Below the pieces are notes generated by a model, which was given only the letters and a program-made list of their open reading frames with translations, had not been told where the DNA came from and did not search any database. Below, piece by piece: positions 1,980 through 57,235 of a stretch of DNA of 64,000 bases; within the stretch, counting starts at the first letter, position 1; the number at the start of each line of letters is the position of its first letter. This DNA comes from Raja brachyura. Its lineage: Eukaryota. The position numbers and the translations under genes are program-made. Location: positions 19,778,001 through 19,842,000 of the forward strand of contig OY740807.1 in assembly GCA_963514005.1 (NCBI GenBank), given 5' to 3'.

Positions 1980-1990
1980 TTCTACAACTG

Positions 1991-3542
1991 CAGTGCCCGC
2001 AATAATGTTTGAGCCAAAGACCCATCATTTATTTATTTGCCTCTGTACTCCACAATTTAAGATTTGTAATAAACAAATCACGTGTGGTTAAAGTGCACAT
2101 TGTCAGATTTTAATAAAGGACTTTTTTAAACATTTTGGTTTCACCATGTAGAAATTACAGCAGTGGTTATACATATTCCCCCATTTCAGGACGCCATGTT
2201 TGGGACGCAGCAATGTCATGTAAATGAAAGTAGTCATGTTTAGTATTTTGTTGCATATGCTTTGCATGAAGTCTGCGATTCATGGACATCACCAGTTGCT
2301 GGGTGTCTTCTCTGGTGATCCTCTGCCAGGCCTGTATTGCAGTTATCTTTAGCTTATGCTTGTTTGGGGGGCTAGTCCCCTTCAGTTTTCTCTTCAGCAT
2401 ATAAATGTTATGCTTAATTGGGTTGAGATCGGGTGATTGACATGGCCACTCAAGAATTGACCATTTTTTAGTTTTGAAAAACTCCTTTGTTGCTTTAGCA
2501 GTATTTTTGGGATCATTGTCTTTCAATTCAATTCAACGTTAATGTCATTGCACAAATACAAGTATAGGTACAACAAAATGCAGTTTAGCTGCAGAATGAA
2601 CGGCCGGTCAATAGGTTTTGAGGCATTTGTTTTAAATTTGAGCAGATAGGATGTGTCTATACACTTCAGCTTTGGATCTTGGCAGTTCCTTCTCTCCTCC
2701 ATATTTTGCTCTTACCATCACTCTGATATAAGTTAATCTTTATCTCATCTGTCCACAAGACCTTTTTCCAGAACTGTGGTTGCTCTTTTAAGTACTGCTC
2801 GGCAAACAGTAACCTGGCCACCCTATTTTATATGCTAACCAGTGGTTTGCATCTTGCAGTGTAGCCTCTGTATTTCTGTTCATGAAGTCTTCTGCAGACA
2901 GTGGTCATTGATAAATCCACACCTGACTCCTGAAGAGTGTTTCTGATCTGTCAGACAGGTGCTTGGGGATTTTTCTTTATTCTAGAGAGAATCCTGTCAT
3001 CAGCTGTGGAGGTCTTCCTTGGCCTACCAGTCCCTTTGCGATTAGTAAGCTCACCAGTGCTCTCTTTCATCTTAATGATGTCCCAGACAGTTGATTTTTG
3101 TAAGCCTAATTTTTGGCTGATGTCTCCAACAGTTTTATTCTTGTTTCTCAGTCTCGCAATGGCTTATTTGACTTTCATTGGCACAACTTTGGTCCTCATG
3201 TTGATAAACAGCAATAAAAGTGTCCAAAGGTGATGGAAAGACTAGAGGAAAGACTAGGTACTAAGAGCTCTCTTGTACCTACATTAAGGAGGCAATTAAA
3301 GACACCTGAGCAATTACAAGACTGTGAAGCCATGTGTCCCAAACATTATGGTGCCCTGACATGTATAAACACAGCTGTAATTTCTACATGTGAAACCAAA
3401 ATGTATAAAAATGGCCTTCAATAAAATCTGACAATGTGCACTTTAACCACATGTGATTTTTTTCTATTACAAATCTCAAATTGTGTACAGCGGCAAATGA
3501 ATAAATTATAGGTCTTTGTCCCAAACATTATGGAGGGCACTG
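1991..3542 (-). mobile_element. Tc1-family DNA transposon, defective
   Basis: Long TIRs CAGTGCCC...GGGCACTG followed by TA. Minus-strand transposase remnant DNDPKNTAK...EWPCQSPDLNPI (DD34E region). Confidence 0.92.
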
Positions 3543-4204
3543 TAATTTTTAGAGGTTCTCCGTAGATGTTTTTTTCCAGCCTGAAAATGACCCATTTATT
3601 CCATCTCTTTTTCGTGTATGTCCTCTAAAACTTTAATCCATGTTAGGAATTCCCCCAATACTTTATAATGATCTATTGCACTTGGCACATTCTCAAATGC
3701 CTTTTGGAAATCCCAAATACGTGACATATGCAGGTTCCTCTCTACCCTTGAAGAACCAACAAATTTATGCAATTATTTCCCTTTCATAAAACCATGTTCA
3801 TATGGTTTGCCTGCAGTAAGCATTTCTGAAAGCTATTTCTACCTTGATTGGATTCCAGCATCTTCCCAACATGTTAAACTAAGTAACTTGTTTCCCACTT
3901 GGTACATGTTTTTTGATTTAATATTGCCTTGACCTCCTTTTTAATCACAGATAGTTCGTCTTTCTCATGTCCCTCTTTTTGATTGAGATAAATGTCTGCA
4001 GACTTTTATTAAATAATTTCTTGAATATCTGACAATACTTTTCTACATCTCCACGATCAATTCTTCCTTCATACCTTTATAAATGTCCTTATTTAGCTTG
4101 AGGATTCAAGTCTTATATCAGGACTGTTCACTGAAATTATGTCTGTAATGTTGTGATCACAACGCCCTGGAGTATCCTTATCTACAAGATCTCCTTCTCA
4201 TTCG

Positions 4205-5660
4205 GGGGCACAGTGGAACAATTGGTAAAACTGCTGCCTCAGAGCGGCAGAGTCCTAGGTACAACCCTACCCTCGAGTGCTGTCCGTGCGGAGTTTGCAC
4301 ATTCTCCCTGTGATCATGTGTTACCTCTGGGTGCTTCAGTTTCCTCCGACACCCAAAGATGTGCCCCTGTAAATTTCCCCTGGTGTGGAGTGGATGTGAA
4401 GGTAGACAAAATTGCTGGAGAAACTCAGCGGGTACGGCAGCATCTATGGAGCGAAGGAAACAGGCAACGTTTCGGGCCAAAACCCTTCTTCAGACTAATG
4501 CAGGGTGGGGAGGGCGGGAAGAAGAAAGGAAGAGGAAGAGTCAGAGGGCTTTGGGAGAGCTGAGAAGGGGAGGAGACAGCAAGGGCTACCAGAAATTGGA
4601 GAAGTCAATGTTCAGGCCACCGGGATGCAGACTGCCCAAGCGGAATATGAGGTGCTGCTCCTCCAGTTTCCGGTGGTGCTCACTCTGGCAATGGAGGAGG
4701 CCCAGGACAGAAAGGTCGGATTCGGAATGGGAGGGGGAGTTGAAGTGCTGAGCCACAGGGAGATCAGGTTGGTTAATGCGGACCGAGCGGAGATGTTCGG
4801 CAAAACGATCGCCAAGCCTATGCTTGGTCTCACTGATGTAGATCACTTGACATCTAGAGCAGCGGATGCAATAGATGAGGTTGGAGGAGGTGCAGGTAAA
4901 CCTCTGTCGCACCTGGAACGACTGCTTGGGTCCTTGAATGGAGTCGACGGGGGAGGTAAAGGACACGTGTAGCATCTCTTGCGGTTGCAAGGGAAAGTGC
5001 CCGGGGAGGGAGTGGTGCGGGTGGGAAGGGAAGAATTGACCAGGGAGTTACGGAGGGAGCGGTCTTTGCGGAAAGCAGACAGGAGGGGAGATGGGAAGAT
5101 GTGGCGAGTGATGGGGTCACGTTGGAGGTGGCGAAAATGACGGAGGACTATTTGTTGTATGTGACGGCTAGTGGGGTGGAAGGTGAGGACTAGGGGGACT
5201 CTGCCCTTGTTCCGAGTGGGGGGGATGGGGAGAGAGAGAGCAGTGTTGCGGGGTATTGAAGAGACCCTGGTGAGAGCCTCATCTGTGGTACGGGAGGGGA
5301 ATCCCCCCGGATTTAATCAGGGGGGATAGGATGGAGTCGAGGTACGTGGAAATAAGTTCGTTAGGGCACGAACAGGCAGAGACAATGGGTCTACCAGGAC
5401 AGTCAGGTTTGTGGATTTTGGGGAGAAGGTAAAATCGGGCCGTGCGGGGCTGGGGAACGATGAGTTTGGAGGCTTGTGGGGGCAGGGAGCCGGAGCTGAT
5501 GAAGTCAGTGATGGTGCTAGATAGTGGCCTGGTGCTCGTCAGTGGGGTCATGGAAAGTAAAAGTAGGGTAACATAGAACAAAGGAGAATGGGTGATCGGT
5601 GGACAATGTGGATTCAATGGCCAATTGCCCGTTTCCAAGCTGTATCTTTCAATCAAAATT
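4205..5660 (+). mobile_element. V-SINE split by a Penelope insertion (SINE parts about 4205-4397 and 5555-5660)
   Basis: Head GGGGCACAGTGG and core GGAGTTTGCACATTCTCCCTGTGA. The SINE 3' part resumes after the Penelope element. Confidence 0.7.
4398..5555 (-). mobile_element. Penelope-like retroelement, internally deleted
   Basis: GIY-YIG endonuclease NLIYCIRCSRCQVIYISETKHRLGDRFAEH...GLN (4586-4990), RT N-terminal motif FYLLPKIHKPDCPGRPIVS (about 5310-5520), terminal repeat with hammerhead-like core at 4463-4496. Confidence 0.9.
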
Positions 5661-7055
5661 TAAAACGGTCTGTTCGGGGAGGAAGTGGTCTGAAACCTAT
5701 CGCTCCAAAAAATAATCCCTGGCTCCCTGATGCACTGCACAGTCCCCTTGTTTGGTTAGTCCAATCAATGTGCAGGTTAAAATTCACTCAATAATTACCG
5801 TTTCCTTATTATATGCCTTCAATGTTTCCCATTTATGCTTTAATCTATCATTTGGCAATGCCTTGAGGGCCTGTGGACCCGTGTCTTCTTTTTTGCAATA
5901 ATGCATTCTTTCCAACTAAAACCAATTCTACACATGAACCACTGCGTCTACAATCACAACTCATCAGCATATTGATACTATGTCGTTGTTTAATGACACT
6001 ATCCACCACTTCCTGTCCATTAGAACATAGACCTGAGAACAGGATAGAACATAGAGCTGAGAACATTGGCCCCCAGTGTCTGTGCCAAACATGATGCCAG
6101 AATCAACTCTTACCTGCCTGCACATATTCCATACCCCTCCATCCCTGCACGTTCTTATGCCTATCCAAGTCTCTTAAATGCCACTATTGTATCTGCCTCC
6201 ATCACTGGCCCCAGCAATGTGTTCCAGTTACCGTTGTTTGGGAACGTCAAATAACCCAGGAGACCAAGTTCATCTTTCTAATCTCTTTGAAATGATAACT
6301 CTACAATAACTATTACATGAAATTAATTCAATTTTATTTGTGCCATTAACTCATCTATCTTCGTAAGAAATGCCTTATAATTTGATTTCATTCAATGTTT
6401 ACTATTCTGGTTAATTCGCTACCTTGTGCCACCACTCTTTCACTGCTCATTAAACATCCCATTTAAATCCAACACTCCTTAATTGTCCATAACCCTAATT
6501 ATGCAATTTCCCAGGTCTCTGGTACCAGCATAGTTCAAAGAAATCCAGCAGAACACCTGCTCTCTTTCCAAATTTCTTGGTGCCAGCATTCCATGAATGA
6601 GAAGCTATTTTTTCCGTGCCAATCTTCCACTAAGCACTTGCTTCTCCATTTCGATTTGCCCTCAACTGATTTGTATCTGGCTCAAGTAATAACCTGGATA
6701 TCATCACCTTTATGATTCTGCTTTTCAATTTTACTTTAACGTACTCATAATTTCACAGCAAAACCTCCTTCCTAGTTTTACTGTGTGCTATTGGTATCTA
6801 GGTCCACATCCTCCAACCGACCAATCGAGAAAAGATCTTTGTGCTCGCAGACAATGTCAGGGCTCTCGCTTAACTTTTTTTCCCTGTTGCCAGCCGGGCA
6901 ACCTTGACAGCTTTTTAGGTTGCCAAATGACAGTTTAGGTGGTCATTTAAGGCATGACACGTGCAAATCGAAGGCATGACACGTGCAATAATGTGCTCAG
7001 ACGAAGTGCGTAGTTACCAGTCAGAATTATACTCAATGAAGCATTCACATATTAT

Positions 7056-7272
7056 GTTCAAGAAGGAACTGCCGATGCTGGAAAATCGAAGGTAGACAAA
7101 AGTGCTGGAGAAACTCAGCGGGTGCAGCAGCATCTATGGAGCGAAGGAAATGGGCAACGTTTCAGGCCGAAACCCATCAGTCTGAAGAAGGGTTTCGGCC
7201 CGAAACGTTGCCTATTTCCTTCGCTCCATAGATGCTGCCGCATCCGCTGAGTTTCTCCAGCACTTTTGTCTA
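7056..7272. mobile_element. Penelope-derived hairpin mini-element with hammerhead core
   Basis: Inverted arms of about 85 bp, CTGAAGA-A-GGGTTTCGGCCC-GAAACGTT at 7182-7209, TSD CATTCACATATTAT (7042-7055 and 7273-7286). The empty site is seen at about 17083-17096. Confidence 0.85.
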
Positions 7273-8059
7273 CATTCACATATTATTTCTGCTTCAAATA
7301 ACTCACAAACTAAACATATTCACCAATCAAGACATGATATATACCACAATGACATGCAGCAAAATTATAATACAATATCTCAACTCTTTTTACATATTGC
7401 AATTAATGCAATTTCTATTAGTTCTTTCGACTTCCAAACAAAAATATGGTTGGATTATTCAGCAAATGATCAACCTGTGTCAATACATCCTGGACCATGC
7501 ACACTACAGATTGATGCAAGCATGTTTTCTGTGAAAGACTGAAAATTACCATGACATGCCCATAGCATGGGTTGTTATTGCTATTGGCACAGAAACACTC
7601 TGGCTTCCCACATAATTTATCCATAACAAAATATAGAGGTTGCAAGGAAATTTCTAAAGGCATTTTATGATAATAGCTGTTAAAACCGACTATAAACATC
7701 TGACAGGTTAAACATTACACTAACTGACAAGAGATGGCCAAAGGACATAACTGCAGCAAATGTTCTTTTGGTACTATGTTTAAAGGTGTCAAAACAAATA
7801 ATAACATTGGGAATTAAAACAGATTTGATTGCATTCCGTTATCATAGTCAATATTCGCTCTGAAGACCATGAATCACAATAGGGTTAGGGGGTGTGTGAA
7901 TCAGTGCGGGGTGGATAGATCGCGGGGGGGGGGGGGGGGAAGAGGGGGGTTAAGAAGGCAATCGGTGCGGAATGGATGGATTCAGGCAGGTGAATAAGTA
8001 TGCGTTGGTTGGAGTATGTAAAATTGTGAGGGGAGAGCACGGGGGATGTCAGTGGTGTT

Positions 8060-8760
8060 GAATGGGGGATCAGTACGGGATGGATGGAGGGGGGATCAGT
8101 ACAGGATGAATGGGTGGTTCAGTACAGGATGAATGGGGGTACACAAAAAATACCGAAGAAATTCAGCGGGTGAGGCAGCATCTATAGAGCTAAGGAAATA
8201 GCAATGTTTCGGGTCGAGACCCTTCTTCAGACTGTTCCCCCAAAACTTCTTGAATGGGGGGATCAGTACAGGATGGATGGGGGGGGGGTCAGCGCAGGAT
8301 GAATGGGGGGAATCAGTACAGGATGAATGGGGGTGGGGGGGTCAGGACAGTGTGGATCGGAGGGTCTGTGCAGGATGAATGGGGGATCACTACAGGATGA
8401 ATGAGGGGATCAGTATAGGATGAATGGGGGATCAGTACGGGATAAATGAGGGGATCAGTACAGGATGCATGAGGGGATCAGTAAAAGATGAATGGGGAGC
8501 TCACTACAGGATGGATAGGGGGGTTGGTGCAGGGTAAATGGAAGGTGGGTCAGTACTGGATGAATGGGAGGATCAGTGCATTATGAATGGGGGGGAGAAG
8601 TGCAGGATGGATGGGAAGGGACGTCAGTACAGGGTGAATTGGGGGACCAGTGTAGGATGGGGGGGGGGGGGGGGAGGGTGGTAGATGGGGAAGGGAGCAC
8701 AGGGGATGTCAGTGAGGACTGAATAGAGGTGGGAATGGGGATCAGTGCTGGATGGAGAGG
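8060..8760 (+). repeat. G-rich degenerate minisatellite (about 22-24 bp, GGGGGATCAGTACAGGATGAAT)
   Basis: Many imperfect tandem units inside the hAT-like element, also present at about 17890-18150. Confidence 0.85.
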
Positions 8761-9052
8761 AGGGGGTCCCAGGATAAGAGGGGTGGAGGGGGCGTACAAG
8801 AGAGAGAGAGAAGGGGAGGGGAAGGGGCAGAGGAGGTGGGGAGGAAGGAAGGTCAGCGCTCCTCGGACAACATCACCCCGTTTCCTTGGCTGTCCCTGTC
8901 CAACGCCAAAGTGCCGCCGCCAAAGGGGGAGGTGGTTGGGAACTCATCGCCACCGCCTCCCCTCCTCCTCCAGCCGACAGGTAGGTGCGGGGCCGAGCGG
9001 TGCAGCTCAAATATCCTATAGCTATAGGATCTTGGGTGCAGCTGCTTCAGTC

Positions 9053-9321
9053 GGCGGAAGGAGGCCTCCCCCTCCTCCCCTCCCTCTCCCTCTCTCCCTT
9101 CCTCCCTCCCTCCTCCCGGCCTCGGCGTGAGAGAGGGGTTGTATTGAAAGCGCTGTTAACGGGTTTGCAGGCATCGGCCGTTATCACGGCGATAGCGGCC
9201 GCTGCCTGCAAATCAAAAGATACTGCTGCAAATCCACCAACTGCGCTTTCAAAACAACCCCTCTCACACGCCGAGGCCGGGAGAAGGGAGGGAGGGAGGG
9301 AGAGGGAGGCCTCCTTCTGCC
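9053..9321. repeat. Long imperfect inverted repeat (about 270 bp)
   Basis: GGCGGAAGGAGGCCTCCC...GGGAGGCCTCCTTCTGCC arms with centre GGCCGTTATC-ACGGC-GATAGCGGCC near 9188. Confidence 0.8.
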
Positions 9322-9678
9322 AGGCGGGGTGTGGGAGGAGGAGGTGATGTCGTGGCCGCTGTTGCCGCTGTTCGAGACCCGTCATTCGCTCCGACCCTTC
9401 GTCACCCCGCTCCTAGTATCTTTGCCCCACAATCAAAGATACTAGAGGAATACAACCACCGTCGACACGAAACGTCACGCTCCTATTCTCCAGAGATGCC
9501 TGACCCGCGGAGCTACTCCAGTTTTTTGTGTCTATCGGTATAAACCAGTATTTGCTTGCCAAGCCGGGCAAAATGAGTCGGCGTTTAGGTTGCCCGGCGG
9601 TACTTTGGATGGTCATTGGCACCCGGGCAACCGCTAATTTAGAGCCCAGAATGTTGCAGAAAAATGCTGGAAAATTAC

Positions 9679-16912: not shown

Positions 16913-18150
16913 CAGGGCTCTCGCTTAACTTTTTTTTCCCTGTTGCCAGCTGGGCAACCTTGGCAGCTTTTTAGGTTGCCAATTGACAGGTTAGGTGGTC
17001 ATTTAAGATGGCTTGCATGATGCATGCGATAATGTGCTCGGACGAAGTGTGTAGTTACCAGTCGGAATAATACTCAATGAAGCACTCACATATTATTTCT
17101 GCTTAGAGTCGCAAACTAAACACCAATCAAGACATGAAATATACCACAATGACATGCAGCTAAATTATAAGACAGTATCTCAACTCTTTTTACACATTGC
17201 AATGAATGCAATTTCTATTAGTTCTTTCCACTTCCAAACAAAAATGTGGTTAGATTATTCAGTGTATGATCAACCTGTGTCAATAAATCCTGGACCATGG
17301 TAACATATATGCGTACGTATAGTTGTGAATGTTGCTCATTAAATAACTACAGTACTGATACTCCATATTAAGAGCATTGATTTGCCGTTAAAATGAATTC
17401 TGTAATAACGTGTCAACGGCAGCAGTGACAATCGAACACTGCAGTTTTAATGTTTCACGTGTTCACAATTTAATTAATCCGTCTTTATGGATTAAAACAA
17501 ATAATAACATTGGGAATTAAAATGCATTTGATTGCATTCCGTTATCAAACATAGTTAATGTTCGCTTTGAAGATATTTCCAGCACAGTCGGGGGGGGGGG
17601 GGGTGAATCAGTGTGGGGTGGATAGATGGCCGGGTGGGGTTAGAAGGCAGGCAGTGCAGAATGGATGGATTGAGGCAGGTGAATTAGTACGTGTTGGTTG
17701 GAGTAGGTAAAATTGTGAGGGCAGAGCACCGGGGATGTCAGTGGTGTTGAATGCGGGGGTTCATTACGCGATGGATGAGGGTAGACTAAGGTGCTGGAGA
17801 AACTCAGTGGGTGAGGCAGCATCTATGGAGTGAAGGAAATAGGCAACGTTTCGGGTCGAGACCCTTCTTCAGACTGTTCCCCACATTCTTCTTGAATGGG
17901 AGGATCAGTCCAGGATGGATGGTGGGGGGGGGGGGGGGGGGGAAGATCAGCGCAGGAAGAATGGGAGGGGGTGGTCAGTACAGTGTGGAACGGAGGGTCT
18001 GTGCAGGATGAATGGAGAATCACTACAGGATGAATGAGAGGGAGGTGCAGGGTATATGGAGGGTGGGTCATTACGGGATAAATGCAGGATGGATGGAGTA
18101 GAAGTGCAGGATGAATGGGAAAGGGGGAAGTACAGGGTGAATTGGGGAAC
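16913..18150. mobile_element. Truncated second copy of the hAT-like element
   Basis: Colinear with 6858-8650, including the G-rich repeats. No right TIR visible. Confidence 0.8.
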
Positions 18151-21342: not shown

Positions 21343-22030
21343 GAAAACATAATGTGGCAGGATGGAACAGTTTGGATAGCAACAAGGAGTATAGCAAGTT
21401 CAGAGTAGAAGTGAAAAATGAAATTACATTAAAAGCATGTGTCAAAATCGATTGGTAACTTGTTGGATTCACTTTAATGTTATCTTCAGGCTTACAAACA
21501 TTAAATGGGTAATAAGAAGAGGGATGAGGTCAATTAGGAATTAAAAAGATCCATCTGTAGAAATTAAGAGCATCGCTTTGTAAAGAAGGCTTTCCAAAGT
21601 TTACTTTTAAAGAAAGGGTAGCTGGGGCACGGGATGGACTGAAAATCAAAGAAATGTAAGTTTAGGAAAGGCTAGCCATAAAATAAACATCACCATTTCC
21701 TAGGTTGCAGTGGTAGGAAATTATGAGGGGAAATACCATAATTTTCCAATCTGCTTTAGACAAGTGGTTTGCTGCAAGAAACTTAAATCCAGGCAAAACT
21801 CGGTTGATCAAGAATGCGATAATACAAGAAAGCCACCATGGGTTTGTTTAAAAACAAATCGTGTTGAATTTTTATTGTGATAACAGTGATTATGACAACA
21901 CTGCAACTGTTATGTGTGTATCGAGTTCAGAACACATTTGTACAAACAAGCAGCAGTAAAGTTAATAGGAAACTGGGAATATGCATTATAGGATGGTGAT
22001 GGCTGTTGCTCTTTGGACTTCAAGGACATA

Positions 22031-22142
22031 AACTGCCCTCCATAATGTTTGGGACAAAGACCCGTCATTTGTTTATTTGCCTCTGTACTCTACAATTTAA
22101 GATTTGTAATAGAACAAAATCACATGTGGTTAAAGTGCACAT
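22031..22142. mobile_element. Tc1 left-TIR fragment fused to a CR1
   Basis: TA|AACTGCCCTCCATAATGTTTGGGACAAAGACC... matches the TIRs at 1991 and 34344. Confidence 0.85.
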
Positions 22143-23293
22143 GAAGGGGAAATCCTGTTTGACTAATCTTCTGGAATTTTTTGAGGATGTGACCTGCAAA
22201 ATGGATGAAGGAGAGCCAGTGGATGTAGTATATCTGGACTTTCAGAAAGCCTTTGATAAGGTCCCGCACAGGAAATTAGTGGACAAAATTAGAGCACATG
22301 GTATTTGGGGTAGGATATCGACATGGATAGAGAATTGGTTGGCAGAGTAGGAATAAACGGGTCCCTGTCAGAATGGCAGGCAGTGGCGAGTGGAGTGCCA
22401 CAAGGCTCAGTGCTGGGGCAGCAACTATTTACAATATAAATGATTTGGATGATGAAATTAGAAGTAACGCTAGCCAGATTTGCAGATGACACAAAGCTGG
22501 GTGGCAGTGTGAACTGCGAAGCGGATGCTAGGAGGTTGCAGGGTGAGCTGAACAGGTTAAGTGAGTGGGCAGATGCAGTATAATGTAGATAAATGTGAGG
22601 TTATACACTTTCATGGCAAGATCAAGGAGGAAGATTATTATCTCAATGGTGTCAGATTAGGAAAAGGGGAATTACAACGAGACCTGACTGTCCTTGTACA
22701 CCAGTCACTGAAAGTAAACATGCAGGTACAGCAGGCAGTGAAGAAACCTCATGGCATGATGGCCTTCATAACGAGAGGATTTGAGTATAGGAGTAAAGTG
22801 GTCCTTCTGCAGTTGTACAGGGACTGGTGAGACCATATCTGGAGTATTATGTGCAGTTTTGGTCTCCTGATTTGAGGAAGGACATCCTTGCTATTGAGGC
22901 AGTGCAGTGTAGGTTCACAAGGTTAATCCCCGGGATGGCAAGACTGTCATATCAGAAAAGATTGGAAAGACTGGGCTTGTGTTCACTAGAATTTAGAAGT
23001 ATGAGAAGTACTTATAGTAACGTATAAAATTATAAAAGGACTGGACAAGCTAGATGCAGGAAAAATGTTCCCAATGTTGGGGGAGTCCAGAACCAGGGGC
23101 CACAGTCTAAGAATAAAGGCCATTTGTAGGCCATTTAAAACTGAGATGAAAAAAACTTTTTCATCCAGAGAGTTGTGAATTTGTGGAATTATCTGCCATT
23201 GAAGGCAGTAGAGGATGAATTTAAAAGAGAGTTAGATAGAGCTCTTGGGGCTAGCGGGAATTGAGGGATATGGGGAGAAGGCAGGCACTGGTT
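22143..23293 (+). mobile_element. CR1 (HER1-like) LINE, 5'-truncated
   Basis: KGKSCLTNLLEFFE...VYLDFQKAFDKVPH, FADDTKLG and RPYLEYYVQFWSP in broken frames. Confidence 0.92.
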
Positions 23294-31880: not shown

Positions 31881-32063
31881 GTGTAGCAAGGAACTGCAGA
31901 TGCTGGTTTAAACCGAAGATAGACACAAAATGCCTACGGGACAGGCAGCATCTCTGGATAGAAGGAATGGGTGACGTTTCGGGTTGTGACCAGTCTGAAG
32001 AAGGGTCTCGACCCGAAAAAGCACCCATTCCTTCTATCCAGAGATGCTACCTGTCCTGCTGGG
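31881..32063. mobile_element. Penelope-derived hairpin mini-element
   Basis: Inverted arms, CTGAAGAAGGGTCTCGACCCGAAA core, and CCATAAT duplicated (31874-31880, 32064-32070). Confidence 0.75.
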
Positions 32064-34185: not shown

Positions 34186-34343
34186 GTAAGTACATATTGT
34201 AAGATGGAGATTAAAATTACATTGAACAGTACCACACAAGAATTGGCCCGCCAGCCCAAAATGTCCACACCTAACATGATGCCAAGTTAAACCAATCTCC
34301 TCTGTCTATATGGATCCATATCCCTCCTTTCCCTGCAGATCTA

Positions 34344-35932
34344 CTGTGCCCTCCATAATGTTTGGGACAAAGACCCATTATTTATTTATTTGCCTCTGTA
34401 TTCCACAATTTGAGATTTGTAATAGAAAAAAAAACATTTTGTTAAAGTGCACATTGTCAAATTTTAATAAAAGCCTTTTTATACATTTTGGTTTCACCAT
34501 GTAGAAATTACAGCAGTGTTTATACATAGTCCCCCCATTTCAGGGCACCATAATGTTTGGGACACGGCAATGTCATGTAAATGAAAGTAGTCGTGTTTAG
34601 TATTTTGTTGCATATCCCCCTTAGTATTTTGTTGTATATGACTGCTTGAAGTCTGTGATTCATGGACATCACCAGTTGCTGGGTGTCTTCTCTGGTGATG
34701 CTCTGCCAGGCCTGTATTGCAGTCATCTTTAGCTTATGCTTGTTTTGGGAGCTAGTCCCCTTCAGTTTCTCTTCAGCATATAAAAGGCTGCTCAATTGGG
34801 TTCAGATAGGGTGATTGACTTGGCCACTCAAGAAGTGACCATTTTTTAACTTTGAAAAACTTGTTGCTTTAGCAGTATGTTTCGGATCATTGTCTTGCTG
34901 TAGAATGAACCATCTATACACATTGGGTCATTATCCTACAACCATCAGTAGTTGTATCATTAATGAAAATGTTAGCTAGTACCTTCAGCAGCCATACATG
35001 CCCAGGCCATAACACCCCCACCACCGTGTTTCACAGATGAGGTAGTATGCTTTGGATCTTGGGCAGTTCCTTCTCTCCTCCATACTTTGCTCTTGCCATC
35101 ACTCTGATATATAAGTTAATTTTCGTCTCATCTGTCCACAAGACCTTTTTTCCGGAACTGTGGTTGCTCTTTTAAGTATTTTGTGGCAAACTGTAACCCG
35201 GCCATCCTATTTTTGCGGCTAACCAATGGTTTGCACCTTGCAGTGTATCCTCTGTATTTCTGTTCATGAAGTCTTCTGCTGACAGTGGTCATTGACAAAT
35301 CCAAACTTAAAGAGTGTTTCTGATCTGTCGGACAGGTGTTTATGGGATTTTTCTTGATTATAGTGCGAATTCTGTAATCAGGTGTGGAGGTCTTCCTTGG
35401 CCTGCCAGTCTCTTTGCGATTTGTAAACTCACCAGTGCTCTCTTTCTGAATGATGTTCCAAACAGTTGATTTTGTTAAGCTTCAGGTTTGGCTGAGATCT
35501 CTAACAGTTTTATTCTTGTTTCTCAGTCTCATAATGGCTTCTTTGACTTTCATTGGCACAACTTTGGTCCTCATGTCGATAAACAGCAATAAAAGTTTCC
35601 AACGGTGATGGAAACACTGGAGGAAAGACTATGTACTGAGAGCTCTCTTATACCTGTATTAAGGAGGCATTTAAACACACCTGAGCAATTACAAACACCT
35701 GTGAAGCCACGTGTCCCAAACATTATGGTGCCCTGAAACGGGGGGACTATGTATAAACACTGCTGTAATGTCTACACGGTGAAACCAAAATGTATAAATA
35801 TACCCTTTAATAAAATCTGACAATGTGCACTTTAACCACATGATTTTTTTCTATTACAAATCTCAAATTGTGGCGTACAGGGCCAAATAAATAAATGATG
35901 GATCTTTGTCCCAAACATTATGCAGGGCACTG
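34344..35932 (-). mobile_element. Tc1-family DNA transposon, second copy, defective
   Basis: TA|CTGTGCCC...GGGCACTG|TA. Same family as 1991-3542, with a frameshifted transposase, nested inside an older SINE/CR1 tail. Confidence 0.92.
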
Positions 35933-38900
35933 TATGTGCATATGCAAAAGCCTCTTAATGCCACTAGCATCTTGCCATTTTCACCATGGGGGGAAATAGG
36001 TTCTGGCTGTGTACCCTATCTTTTCCTCTCATTATTTAATATACTTCTATCAGGTTTCCCCTCAAACTCTGACATCCCAGAGCAAACAATCCAAGTTTGT
36101 CAAACCTCTCCTTAAAGTTGATCCAGAACTGCACACGATACTCAAAATGCGTCCTCACCAAAGTCCTGTGCAGCAGATATGCGACTTCCTTGACAGATGG
36201 AGGGACTTCAATACTCCTAAATTGATTGCATTGTCCTACTAGGAAATTGTGGTTGAGGCAACAAAGGTGAAAATTAGCAAATTTTCTCTTCTTTTGCATA
36301 TCTTATCAAGATTGTATTGCTGTAGAGTATACTGCTGACACAGGCTTGGTTGCCCTGCAGTTTAGTGTTTTCTGTCATGTGGTCTTTCTGAAGCCGACTG
36401 AATGGTGACCTGCGAAAAGTATACAAGATTGAGAGGAATTGAAAAGATACTCATTATATTTCTTCTGAGGATATCATAAACAAGGGTATATTTTTATGGT
36501 AAGACATGAAAGATTTAATAGGGAACTTTTGGGTGTTTTCTCTTCGCAAAGGCTGCCATGATGCTTTCATTTACTAAACTAATGGGATGATGCTGAGCTT
36601 TTTTACTTTGGAGTGCTAACTAAAATATCAATAACCATTTTTCATAATTTAAACAGGAACTTGATTCTTTTTAGGAAATACTTTAGCTCGTGTAAAAAAA
36701 ATTGTCAATCTTTGATTAAAATTATACTGTCTATTCATATATCCATTAATTTACTTCTGACCCTTTTCATCTGCTTGATCAATTAGTTGTCAAAAAAGAT
36801 TAGTTCTTCCCAAACTCCTCATGTAGCTGTACTTAGAAGTAACATGAGGCATTCCATTCTTCTAAATCTTGAGTGAAAACTAGTTACTGGTATCTATTAA
36901 TATGCTGAATGTAACCATTGAAAACATTTAAGATTAATATCAAAGCTATTGACCTTCAAGAAGACATTTATTCTTCGTGAAATATTTTCAAACACACCTG
37001 TGAATCGTGTCTTTCAGTAAAACGTGTCTTATGATCAAACCTGATATTCCAGTCTACAGTATAGAGATCAGTTTTAAAAATTCCATTTTAAATTACTTGC
37101 GTCATGCTTTTTGTAAGTTCTATTTATAAAATGGTGTCAGTTTCCTTGGGATCATTTATGAGCTATATTGTATGCAGTGTTTAAAAATGTGAGAATATGA
37201 CATAACCAAAGTTAATGAATCCATTGTGAATCTATATTGTAGACAAAGACTGAAAGACGTTTACCTTAAAAGGCTGAGGCTGAACAGAAAATTCCCAGAT
37301 TGACGTGTCCACCAATATCTTGCTTTGATCAAAATCTAGGCTGAAATCTAGTGAAGTACTGAGGAACTGTTGCATTTCTGAAGGTGCCTTATTTCAGTTG
37401 CAACATTAAGTCAAGCGCTGCTGAGGTGGACATGAGAGAACTAATTGTACTGTTCAGAGAAGAATAGAGGAGTTCTCCCCGGTTTCCTGACATATTTATT
37501 ACTCATACAATCCACTAGAGAAAAACATCACTTTGCTGTTGTGGGATCCTTTTGTGTATGTTGGTTGCCACATTTCATTATTGCAGGAACTCATTAATTA
37601 GCTTTAACGTGCATTGGAATGTGTTGAATTTATGAAAGGTGTGATTATAAATACAAGTCTGAACACTTTTTCACTACAATGATTTATCTTTCTCTCCTTT
37701 TCATTTTCTTCACTTTTCATGTTGACATCATCTATGGCACATACTATATAATAATGATGGGCTTCCATTCAAATAACCAAGCTCAATATTTTCAGTACCT
37801 CAGGACAGGAAAGGGATCTCTAAAACTAAAGCATTTACACCGGATATTCATGCAAGGAAGCATTTCTCTGTTCTTATTAGATTGGTGGCTACCTGATACA
37901 GAGTTTTAATGTTAACTGGCTAATTCTAAATGTTTACAATGGAGTAGTTGTGGGTGGGTATGTTAGAATTATGCATCCAGTACATATATTTAAAACACTA
38001 TCTCTTGTCAATATATCTAAATAAAGGCACCATAATCAAGAGTGCCATGTAATGATCATTAGGTACATTCTTTTCAACATCACTAGGAAAGATCAAAAAG
38101 ACTGAAATCATGCTAAGGACCTATAAGATCAAAGTCATTCTGTATGAAGTTCCCTTTGGGGACCAAAGAGGAAAACTGTGAATTAAGGTAGGAGATGTGG
38201 GGTCCTAAATGATTATTTTCCATCTGTATTTACCAAGGAGAAAGATATGTAGTTTATTGAGTGCAGGGCCACATTGATAGGCCAGAGCATGTCAGTATTA
38301 AGAAGGTGAGGTGTTAGATGTCTTGAAACAAAATATTGGATAAATCCCCAGGACCAGATGAGATCTATCCAAGAATGGTATAGGGAAAACAATGGAAGAG
38401 GCTGGAAACTTGACACAGATTTTTGCATCTTTATTTGCCACTAAAGACTAAAGAATAACTAACAATATTTTATTTCAGAGAGTAGTCTTGGATAAATAAG
38501 CAAGTTAACTATAGGCTAGTATGCCTTTTGCTGGTAAGGAAATTAATGGAGACAATTCAGAAAGGTAGTAATGTACATTTGGGAAGGTGGGAAACTGATA
38601 GGGGAGAGTCAACATAGCTTTGTGCTGGTGAAAAGGTTAAATGCTTTTAAATATATAAAAGATATATAATGGAATTCTGGACTAGGTTATAGCTTCTATT
38701 TCGTCTCAAGCAGGCCTTTTCCAGTGGATTGATAAGAGAGAGAGAGAGAGAGACAAGCCTGGGCTTGCCTCGAGTTGCTGTGTATAGAGCTAATGACCGA
38801 TGTCTTTGAAATGTATCTACCAATTGAAGAGAGAGAGAGAGAAGCCCAGACTTGCCTCAGTGATGTATATGAAGACAATGCCCGATGCCTTTGAGATGTC

Positions 38901-56499: not shown

Positions 56500-57235
56500 T
56501 TCCTCATAGCATCTCTTCACAGTTCACACTGCCACCCGGCTTTGTGTTATCTGCAGATTTGCTAATGTTACTTTTAATTCCTTCATCTAAATCATTGATG
56601 TATATTGTAAATAGCTGCGGTCCCAGCACTGAGACTTCCGGCACCCCACCAGTCACTGCCTGCCAGTCTGAAAGGGACCTGTTAATCCCTACTTTGTTTC
56701 CTGTCTACCAACCAATTTTCTATCCATATCAATACCCTCCACCCAATACCATGTGCTCTAATTTTGCCCACTGATCTCCTGTGTGGGACCTTATCAAAGG
56801 CTTTCAGAAAGTCCAGGTACACTACATCCACTGGCTCTCCTTTGTTCATTTTACTTGTTACATCCTCAAAATATTCCAGAAGATTTGTTAAGCATGATTT
56901 TCCCTTCGTAACTCCATGCTGACTTGAACCGATCCTGTTACTGCTATCCAAATGAGACGCTATTACATCTTCGATAATCGACTCCAGCATCTTCCCCACC
57001 ACCAATGCCAGACTAACTGGTCTATAATTCCCTGCTTTGTCTCTCCCACCTTGAAAAGTGGGATAACATTATCTACCCTCCAATCCACAGGAACTGATCC
57101 AGAATTTATAGGACATTGAAAAATGATCACCAATGCGTCCACAAATTCTAGAGCCACCTCCTTGAGTATCCTGGGATGCAGACCATCAGGTCCTGGGGAT
57201 TTATCCACCTTCAGTCCCATCACTATACCCAGCTC
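56500..57235 (-). mobile_element. CR1 (HER1-like) LINE RT fragment
   Basis: KSPGPDGLHPRILKE, QHGVTKGKSCLTNLLEYFE, VYLDFLKAFDKVPH peptides. Confidence 0.92.

Follow-up and report, generated by a model that had tools for sequence, protein, structure and literature searches.

A hairpin of Penelope-like terminal repeats with a minimal hammerhead motif, nested in a hAT5-like repeat of the skate Raja brachyura

The closest described relatives of the locus analysed here are Penelope-like elements (PLEs), for which an insertion layout of inverted pLTR plus tail has been published (PMC3846280, PMC8557442). For an Anolis PLE, PMC11167929 draws the same pLTR arrangement as we find in the parent element of our insert, and reports two reverse transcriptase (RT) start sites with extension on both strands in vitro. 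The minimal hammerheads of PLEs cleave weakly even as dimers (PMC4209133), and in D. virilis an intron ends at helix I of the motif (PMC4209133; PMC2377424). For the surrounding repeat, the nearest match is hAT5, which is defined by a 5-bp target-site duplication (TSD; definition in Repbase Reports 2007 as cited in PMC12730594). Our literature search brought up neither a report of a Penelope hairpin multiplied within a hAT-like element nor one of such stubs in skates; both repeats may be present in Repbase or Dfam or in paper supplements, outside that search. The feature itself is ordinary: an insertion layout already known for Penelope, sitting within a repeat that resembles a DNA transposon. 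We consider it very probable that the insert consists of two head-to-head Penelope-like ends, likely from one event, and that its copies, which share one site in a carrier repeat, were likely spread by that carrier.

The window, a stretch of 64,000 nucleotides (GCA_963514005.1, contig OY740807.1, positions 19,778,001 to 19,842,000 of the forward strand), holds the 217-bp insert at 7056-7272, between identical 14-mers CATTCACATATTAT that form the left (7042-7055) and right (7273-7286) copies of an unstranded TSD. The TSD is verified by an empty site at 17083-17096 in a paralogous host copy, where the 14-mer occurs once with 1 mismatch; when 16913-17300 was aligned with the insert locus, the flanks matched on both sides around a single 231-bp gap. 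The two arms (7088-7178 and 7187-7277) are 93% complementary, and the insert folds as one long hairpin of -169.2 kcal/mol (z -23.4), a value equalled by none of 200 shuffles. A sequence-only reading of the window had proposed two inverted Penelope terminal repeats, a TSD of 13-14 bp and a pre-insertion site at about 17083-17096, and on all three points our alignments and fold agree with it, the TSD being exactly 14 bp. The arms are unequal. On the minus strand, the left arm (7093-7175) is the 3′ part of a pLTR, 5′-truncated so that it opens with the first G of stem II and lacks the catalytic core, and its outer end is longer by 37 nt; this 'tail' (7056-7092, minus strand) occurs in the left arm only, and in the tandem copies L160 and L161 the pLTR/tail runs on into the ORF start of the next unit. 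The right arm (7176-7272, plus strand) is likewise a pLTR 3′ part, extending from 6 nt before the hammerhead core to a short, tail-less 3′ end, such that an inverted 5′-truncated pLTR adjoins a direct one with no ORF sequence between them. The arms differ at 5 of 86 letters, and as at least one of these differences was already present in the founder, the two arms need not derive from one RNA.

On sequence evidence, the arms are the pLTR of an endonuclease-bearing PLE. Their sequence is present in thousands of copies in the 2.7-Gb genome (2422 exact matches for a 43-mer, 4441 for another pattern), and in two loci this pLTR lies downstream of an ORF that matches RT and GIY-YIG domains, namely L150 (RVT_1, E 0.00025; GIY-YIG, E 0.0014; both weak) and L225, which has the order pLTR-ORF-pLTR (RT, E 0.0056; GIY-YIG, E 0.0098); all four matches lie below the Pfam cut-offs, and the frames are broken in both loci. 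This arrangement supports the earlier assignment of the arms to Penelope-type ends with a minimal hammerhead. A decayed copy of the parent type, recognised by eye from its likeness to L150 and L225, lies at 4394-5659 on the minus strand, where the remains of an ORF precede this pLTR with its hammerhead; its three ORF fragments had no Pfam match at E 0.1. Elsewhere in the window (31888-32061), a different pLTR subfamily has left a further fold-back insert, which is older and has a left-arm tail and a different junction.

The carrier is a non-coding, unstranded 2.8-kb repeat (6858-9649) with 8-9-bp TIRs CAGGGCTC and subterminal GGCAACC/GGTTGCC motifs, bounded by a 5-bp TSD, AATGT, at 6853-6857 on the left and 9650-9654 on the right (no strand). 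A second, partial copy (16913-18084, no strand) is without the hairpin and contains the empty site. Among the 18 copies with both ends, out of 41 examined, 12 had an exact 5-bp TSD, 3 had one mismatch, 2 had a 6-bp and none an 8-bp TSD, compared with 2 of 306 in a cross-pair control. These copies ranged from 1.6 to 3.8 kb, part of the variation being due to a minisatellite of about 24 bp of the GGATGAATGGG type, found in the carrier at 8046-8620 and 17890-18150, and the carrier 3′ end had 567 exact matches genome-wide. On TSD length and ends only, we classify the carrier as a putative hAT5-like non-autonomous DNA transposon; its short TIRs starting with CAGGG and its subterminal repeats are also hAT traits. 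We keep to the label 'hAT5-like' because no transposase with the carrier's ends was found: of 1667 PF05699 candidates 150 were scored, and no hAT transposase among the 30 best shared them, nor was one evident by eye among frames of at least 150 aa at 30 carrier 3′ ends. Several of the PF05699 matches were hAT transposase frames of about 780-790 aa that are nearly identical to one another, which suggests a young hAT family; their ends were unrelated to the carrier within the 1.5 kb examined. An older solo pLTR (8135-8234, minus strand) is shared with the empty carrier copy, at 17776-17876, and the carrier appears to have taken up Penelope ends more than once. Other observations in the window were a third, decayed pLTR-like piece near the carrier 3′ end (9460-9560, by eye), a 79-bp inverted repeat pair in the carrier 3′ part (9092-9304; 89% complementary) that drew spurious Rfam miRNA matches, and another dispersed repeat family with long inverted ends, probably a further DNA transposon, at 1988-3544, 22026-22441, 34341-35937 and 56598-56907.

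Copies of the insert were located by an exact 24-mer spanning the junction of the arms, which occurs 478 times genome-wide. We fetched 50 of these (the first 30 plus 20 from other contigs, two loci being one place) and found carrier flank on both sides in 40, on one side in 9 and on neither in 1; the flanks were as in the window for all of the first 30, and 49 of the 50 copies occupied a single position in the carrier and shared their TSD sequence. The sole copy in unrelated flanks, L261, indicates that formation or movement of this junction does not require the carrier, yet its right arm has been cut short and folded again, so that it is not the 217-bp unit. By exact patterns, at least 611 carrier sites are filled and at least 1155 empty. 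A derived indel allele just beyond the right TSD was present in 514 filled copies, whereas the common allele was found in 2, both with the same junction as the rest; among 100 listed empty sites (of 915), all had the common allele and none the derived one. A flank tree of 36 rows required 2 changes of the filled/empty label as opposed to 12.2 in shuffles, but one origin for all filled copies was recovered in 0 of 200 bootstrap trees, which were built from 210-nt flanks that later insertions have partly disrupted; since the tree was clustered but too weak for one clade, we relied on the allele counts instead. A private right-arm letter, T at 7243, occurred in 27 of 27 parsed right arms and was rare among related pLTR contigs (from four runs as contigs, which carry no information on ends, strand or level). 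The shared flanks, the shared junction and the linked alleles show that a single founder insertion lies behind the filled carrier copies. Recurrence of the junction among genomic copies had been put forward as the check for a family; it does recur, 478 times, but as proof of a family this is misleading, because 49 of the 50 fetched copies share one host flank and the 'host' is itself a mobile unit. For repeat curation this is a warning, as a recurrent junction is usually read as proof of a non-autonomous family and here results from hitch-hiking.

Insertions of the same pLTR away from the carrier were assessed in 88 tail-bearing copies out of 100 listed (all on contig C1, of 2422), among which 26 were in the carrier and 62 independent; about 30% of the sampled tail-bearing matches are thus one founder copied by the carrier. 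The independent copies comprised 24 hairpins, 28 solos and 10 with an ORF end attached. Junctions were unique in 19 of the 24 hairpins, while 5 shared a turn at the stem II palindrome and none equalled the junction in the window. TSD-like repeats of 10-19 nt, most near 13-17 with fuzzy edges, flanked 18 of the 24, and repeats of at least 10 nt occurred in 2 of 182 mismatched flank pairs. The inverted arm was without a tail in 23 of 24 and ended at +88 to +99 in 19 of 24; divergence between arms was 0.051 within a hairpin (n=19) versus 0.070 across loci, with 0 of 5000 permutations as low. Because 24 of the 62 independent copies are hairpins, with TSDs of their own, a one-sided tail and arms closer within a locus than across loci, hairpins are a routine product of this PLE, built at insertion. 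The independent stubs constitute a large natural data set on PLE insertion.

The founder can be pictured as follows. The Penelope RT/GIY-YIG enzyme, which to judge from the parent ORF probably made the original insertion, would have nicked both strands 14 nt apart. A short cDNA would have been primed at either nick, a tailed one from the far start site and a tail-less one from the near start site, as with the neighbouring pair of RT start sites of the Anolis element (PMC11167929). Both cDNAs would have stopped at the hammerhead and been joined with at most 1 nt of microhomology. The resulting insertion sits inside the 2.8-kb carrier, a repeat bounded by short inverted ends and 5-bp TSDs, whose lineage then multiplied, presumably through cut-and-paste mobilisation by a hAT5-type transposase.

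A side observation concerns the 5′ ends of the stubs. In 100 listed matches of the second pLTR pattern, sorted by eye, about 37 were carrier-borne and 63 were not; among the latter, 28 started 0-3 nt before the hammerhead core (15 at -2), compared with no more than 3 at the predicted cut. Long copies such as L225 have a GT...pyrimidine tract...CAG stretch of about 100 nt, with its splice-acceptor-like end exactly at this pile-up of stub 5′ ends. We offer only tentatively, as a doubtful but possible reading, that the stubs record a defined RNA 5′ end of the Penelope cycle, up to which both nicked strands would be extended simultaneously from the two RT start sites, giving the hairpins; if true, ribozyme cleavage does not set the end of the Penelope template. 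Hammerhead cleavage as the maker of these ends was rejected, with 5 of 76 short-arm 5′ ends at +27/28 as opposed to 21 at -4 to +2 (tail sample, BLAST edges, about 3 nt uncertainty), and of three candidate ends at the cut site, one belonged to a long copy interrupted there by a 16-nt insertion, another was a hairpin junction and the third was ambiguous. Many G-GTCTG starts had hinted at an additional, cap-derived G at the 5′ join; this idea was set aside as unproven since G or GT is often part of the target in copies with clear TSDs (L310, L311, L315, L318). As separate observations, the intron-like stretch in L225 and other long copies runs from the ORF stop codon to the base before hammerhead helix I, resembling in this the intron of D. 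virilis, and is retained in genomic copies; no spliced genomic copy was present among the loci examined, two loose matches being unspliced. A single long pLTR copy, L340 (C1:12564950-12565650), has a 16-nt T-rich insertion exactly at the predicted cut.

The same passenger history would hold if the second founder arm had arisen from one cDNA by fold-back self-priming or template jumping at the hammerhead palindromes, an origin that we regard as rather unlikely. Palindromic head-to-head junctions are taken as self-priming in PMC3846280, about 8 of the 24 independent hairpins turn on a self-complementary word, and arms are more alike within than across loci. The junction in the window, however, is not palindromic, its arms starting at +8 and -6 relative to the core, and the same is true of most others; the fixed end of the inverted arm, at +88 to +99 in 19 of 24, is better matched by a second RT start site (PMC11167929) than by a random stop; and palindromic junctions also arise later by deletion, as seen in the passenger copies L143 and L146. 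Taken as a whole, the data presented here fit dual priming and fold-back self-priming alike.

The sequence-only reading had gone further and taken the hairpin for a non-autonomous, retrozyme-like unit moved by the Penelope enzyme; in such a model the unit would be transcribed, cleave itself as a dimer and be reinserted by that enzyme. Its starting point is sound: the right arm carries a minimal type I hammerhead motif (7180-7211, plus strand; identified by sequence), in which CUGAAGA-A-[GGGU UUCG GCCC]-GAAA-CGUU occupies 7182-7209, comprising the core (7182-7189), stem II (7190-7201), GAAA (7202-7205) and a palindromic CG (7206-7207), with a predicted cut between 7209 and 7210. Helix I has 2 contiguous pairs, and all marks of the minimal type I listed in PMC4209133 are present (CUGAnGA, GAAA, G10.1-C11.1, an extra base after 9 and palindromic 15.2-16.2). 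Rfam gave no hammerhead family match in the insert at E up to 1, and its miRNA matches, below gathering score, were dismissed as hairpin artefacts. The left arm begins inside stem II, which deprives the minus strand of a CUGAnGA core and leaves the insert with a single hammerhead instead of two. In fold predictions, forcing the hammerhead cost 40.1 kcal/mol in the whole insert and 7.8 in the right arm alone, which points to a motif locked by pairing inside the hairpin. Among the 26 tail-picked passenger copies, 11 kept the full core, and core letters differed at 9 of 257 (3.5%) compared with 65 of 1668 (3.9%) at other non-CpG arm positions; at this modest power there is no sign of selection on the core, which decays like its neighbours. 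Since it pairs within the hairpin and is no better conserved than adjacent positions, the hammerhead is predicted to have no role in this history. A retrozyme-like unit could draw on the minimal hammerhead features, on the junction copy outside the carrier, on the palindromic junction shared by five independent hairpins and on the ability of pLTRs to act in trans (PMC3846280). Against it stand the carrier location and common TSD sequence of 49 of 50 junction copies, the 514:2 allele linkage, the single hammerhead in arms that are inverted and not tandem, the predicted sequestration by 40 kcal/mol of a core without excess conservation, and the altered structure of L261. We therefore judge this model largely refuted and very improbable: what survives of it is the Penelope enzyme as probable maker of the original insertion, given the pLTR behind an RT/GIY-YIG ORF, and what finds no support is the self-moving unit. 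Most probably, the hairpin is a fossil of an ordinary kind, as opposed to a ribozyme element that spreads by itself. We give practically no credence to repeated targeting of the carrier site by the Penelope enzyme, always with the same product, for although the AT-richness of the site matches the preference of the Anolis enzyme (PMC11167929) and the carrier holds other pLTR captures (8135-8234), the linked alleles refute it, with identical junction, ends and TSD, the private T7243 and the flank allele all indicating one founder, and independent insertions elsewhere differ in junction.

Compared with the metazoan PLE minimal type I hammerheads described in PMC4209133, the motif shares the extra nucleotide between 9 and 10.1, the G10.1-C11.1 pair, the palindromic 15.2-16.2 and the lack of a real helix III. 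Helix I has 2 bp, as in D. virilis, whereas helix II has 4 bp as opposed to 7-8 bp in Schistosoma; the predicted cut triplet of this skate pLTR subfamily, GUU, also counts as a difference, and unlike those hammerheads the motif appears locked in a 90-bp hairpin. With non-LTR retrozymes (PMC7229834; bioRxiv 10.64898/2026.07.22.740005), the insert has in common that it is non-coding and pLTR-derived, with a type I hammerhead and a long TSD. Retrozymes, as these sources describe them, are head-to-tail tandems with a hammerhead in each unit and a circular RNA, whereas the insert is one inverted pair with one core and gives no indication of independent movement, and 49 of 50 copies are at the carrier site and not at new sites with TSDs of their own; the insert falls outside the retrozyme definition. 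The carrier has 5-bp, rarely 6-bp, TSDs as in hAT5 (PMC12730594), with no transposase found for it in the matches and ends examined. The strongest likeness is to insertions of endonuclease-bearing PLEs, including Adineta Pen2a (PMC3846280) and the general scheme of PMC8557442: head-to-head pLTRs with a TSD around the whole unit, a one-sided tail (30-40 bp there, 37 nt in the window), a hammerhead in the pLTR, a parent ORF with RT followed by GIY-YIG, and a pLTR/tail that overlaps the next ORF start in tandems. From this published layout the insert in the window differs in its longer TSD (14 bp, compared with 8-10 bp in the rotifer cases of PMC3846280), in having no ORF between its arms, and in owing its copy number to the carrier.
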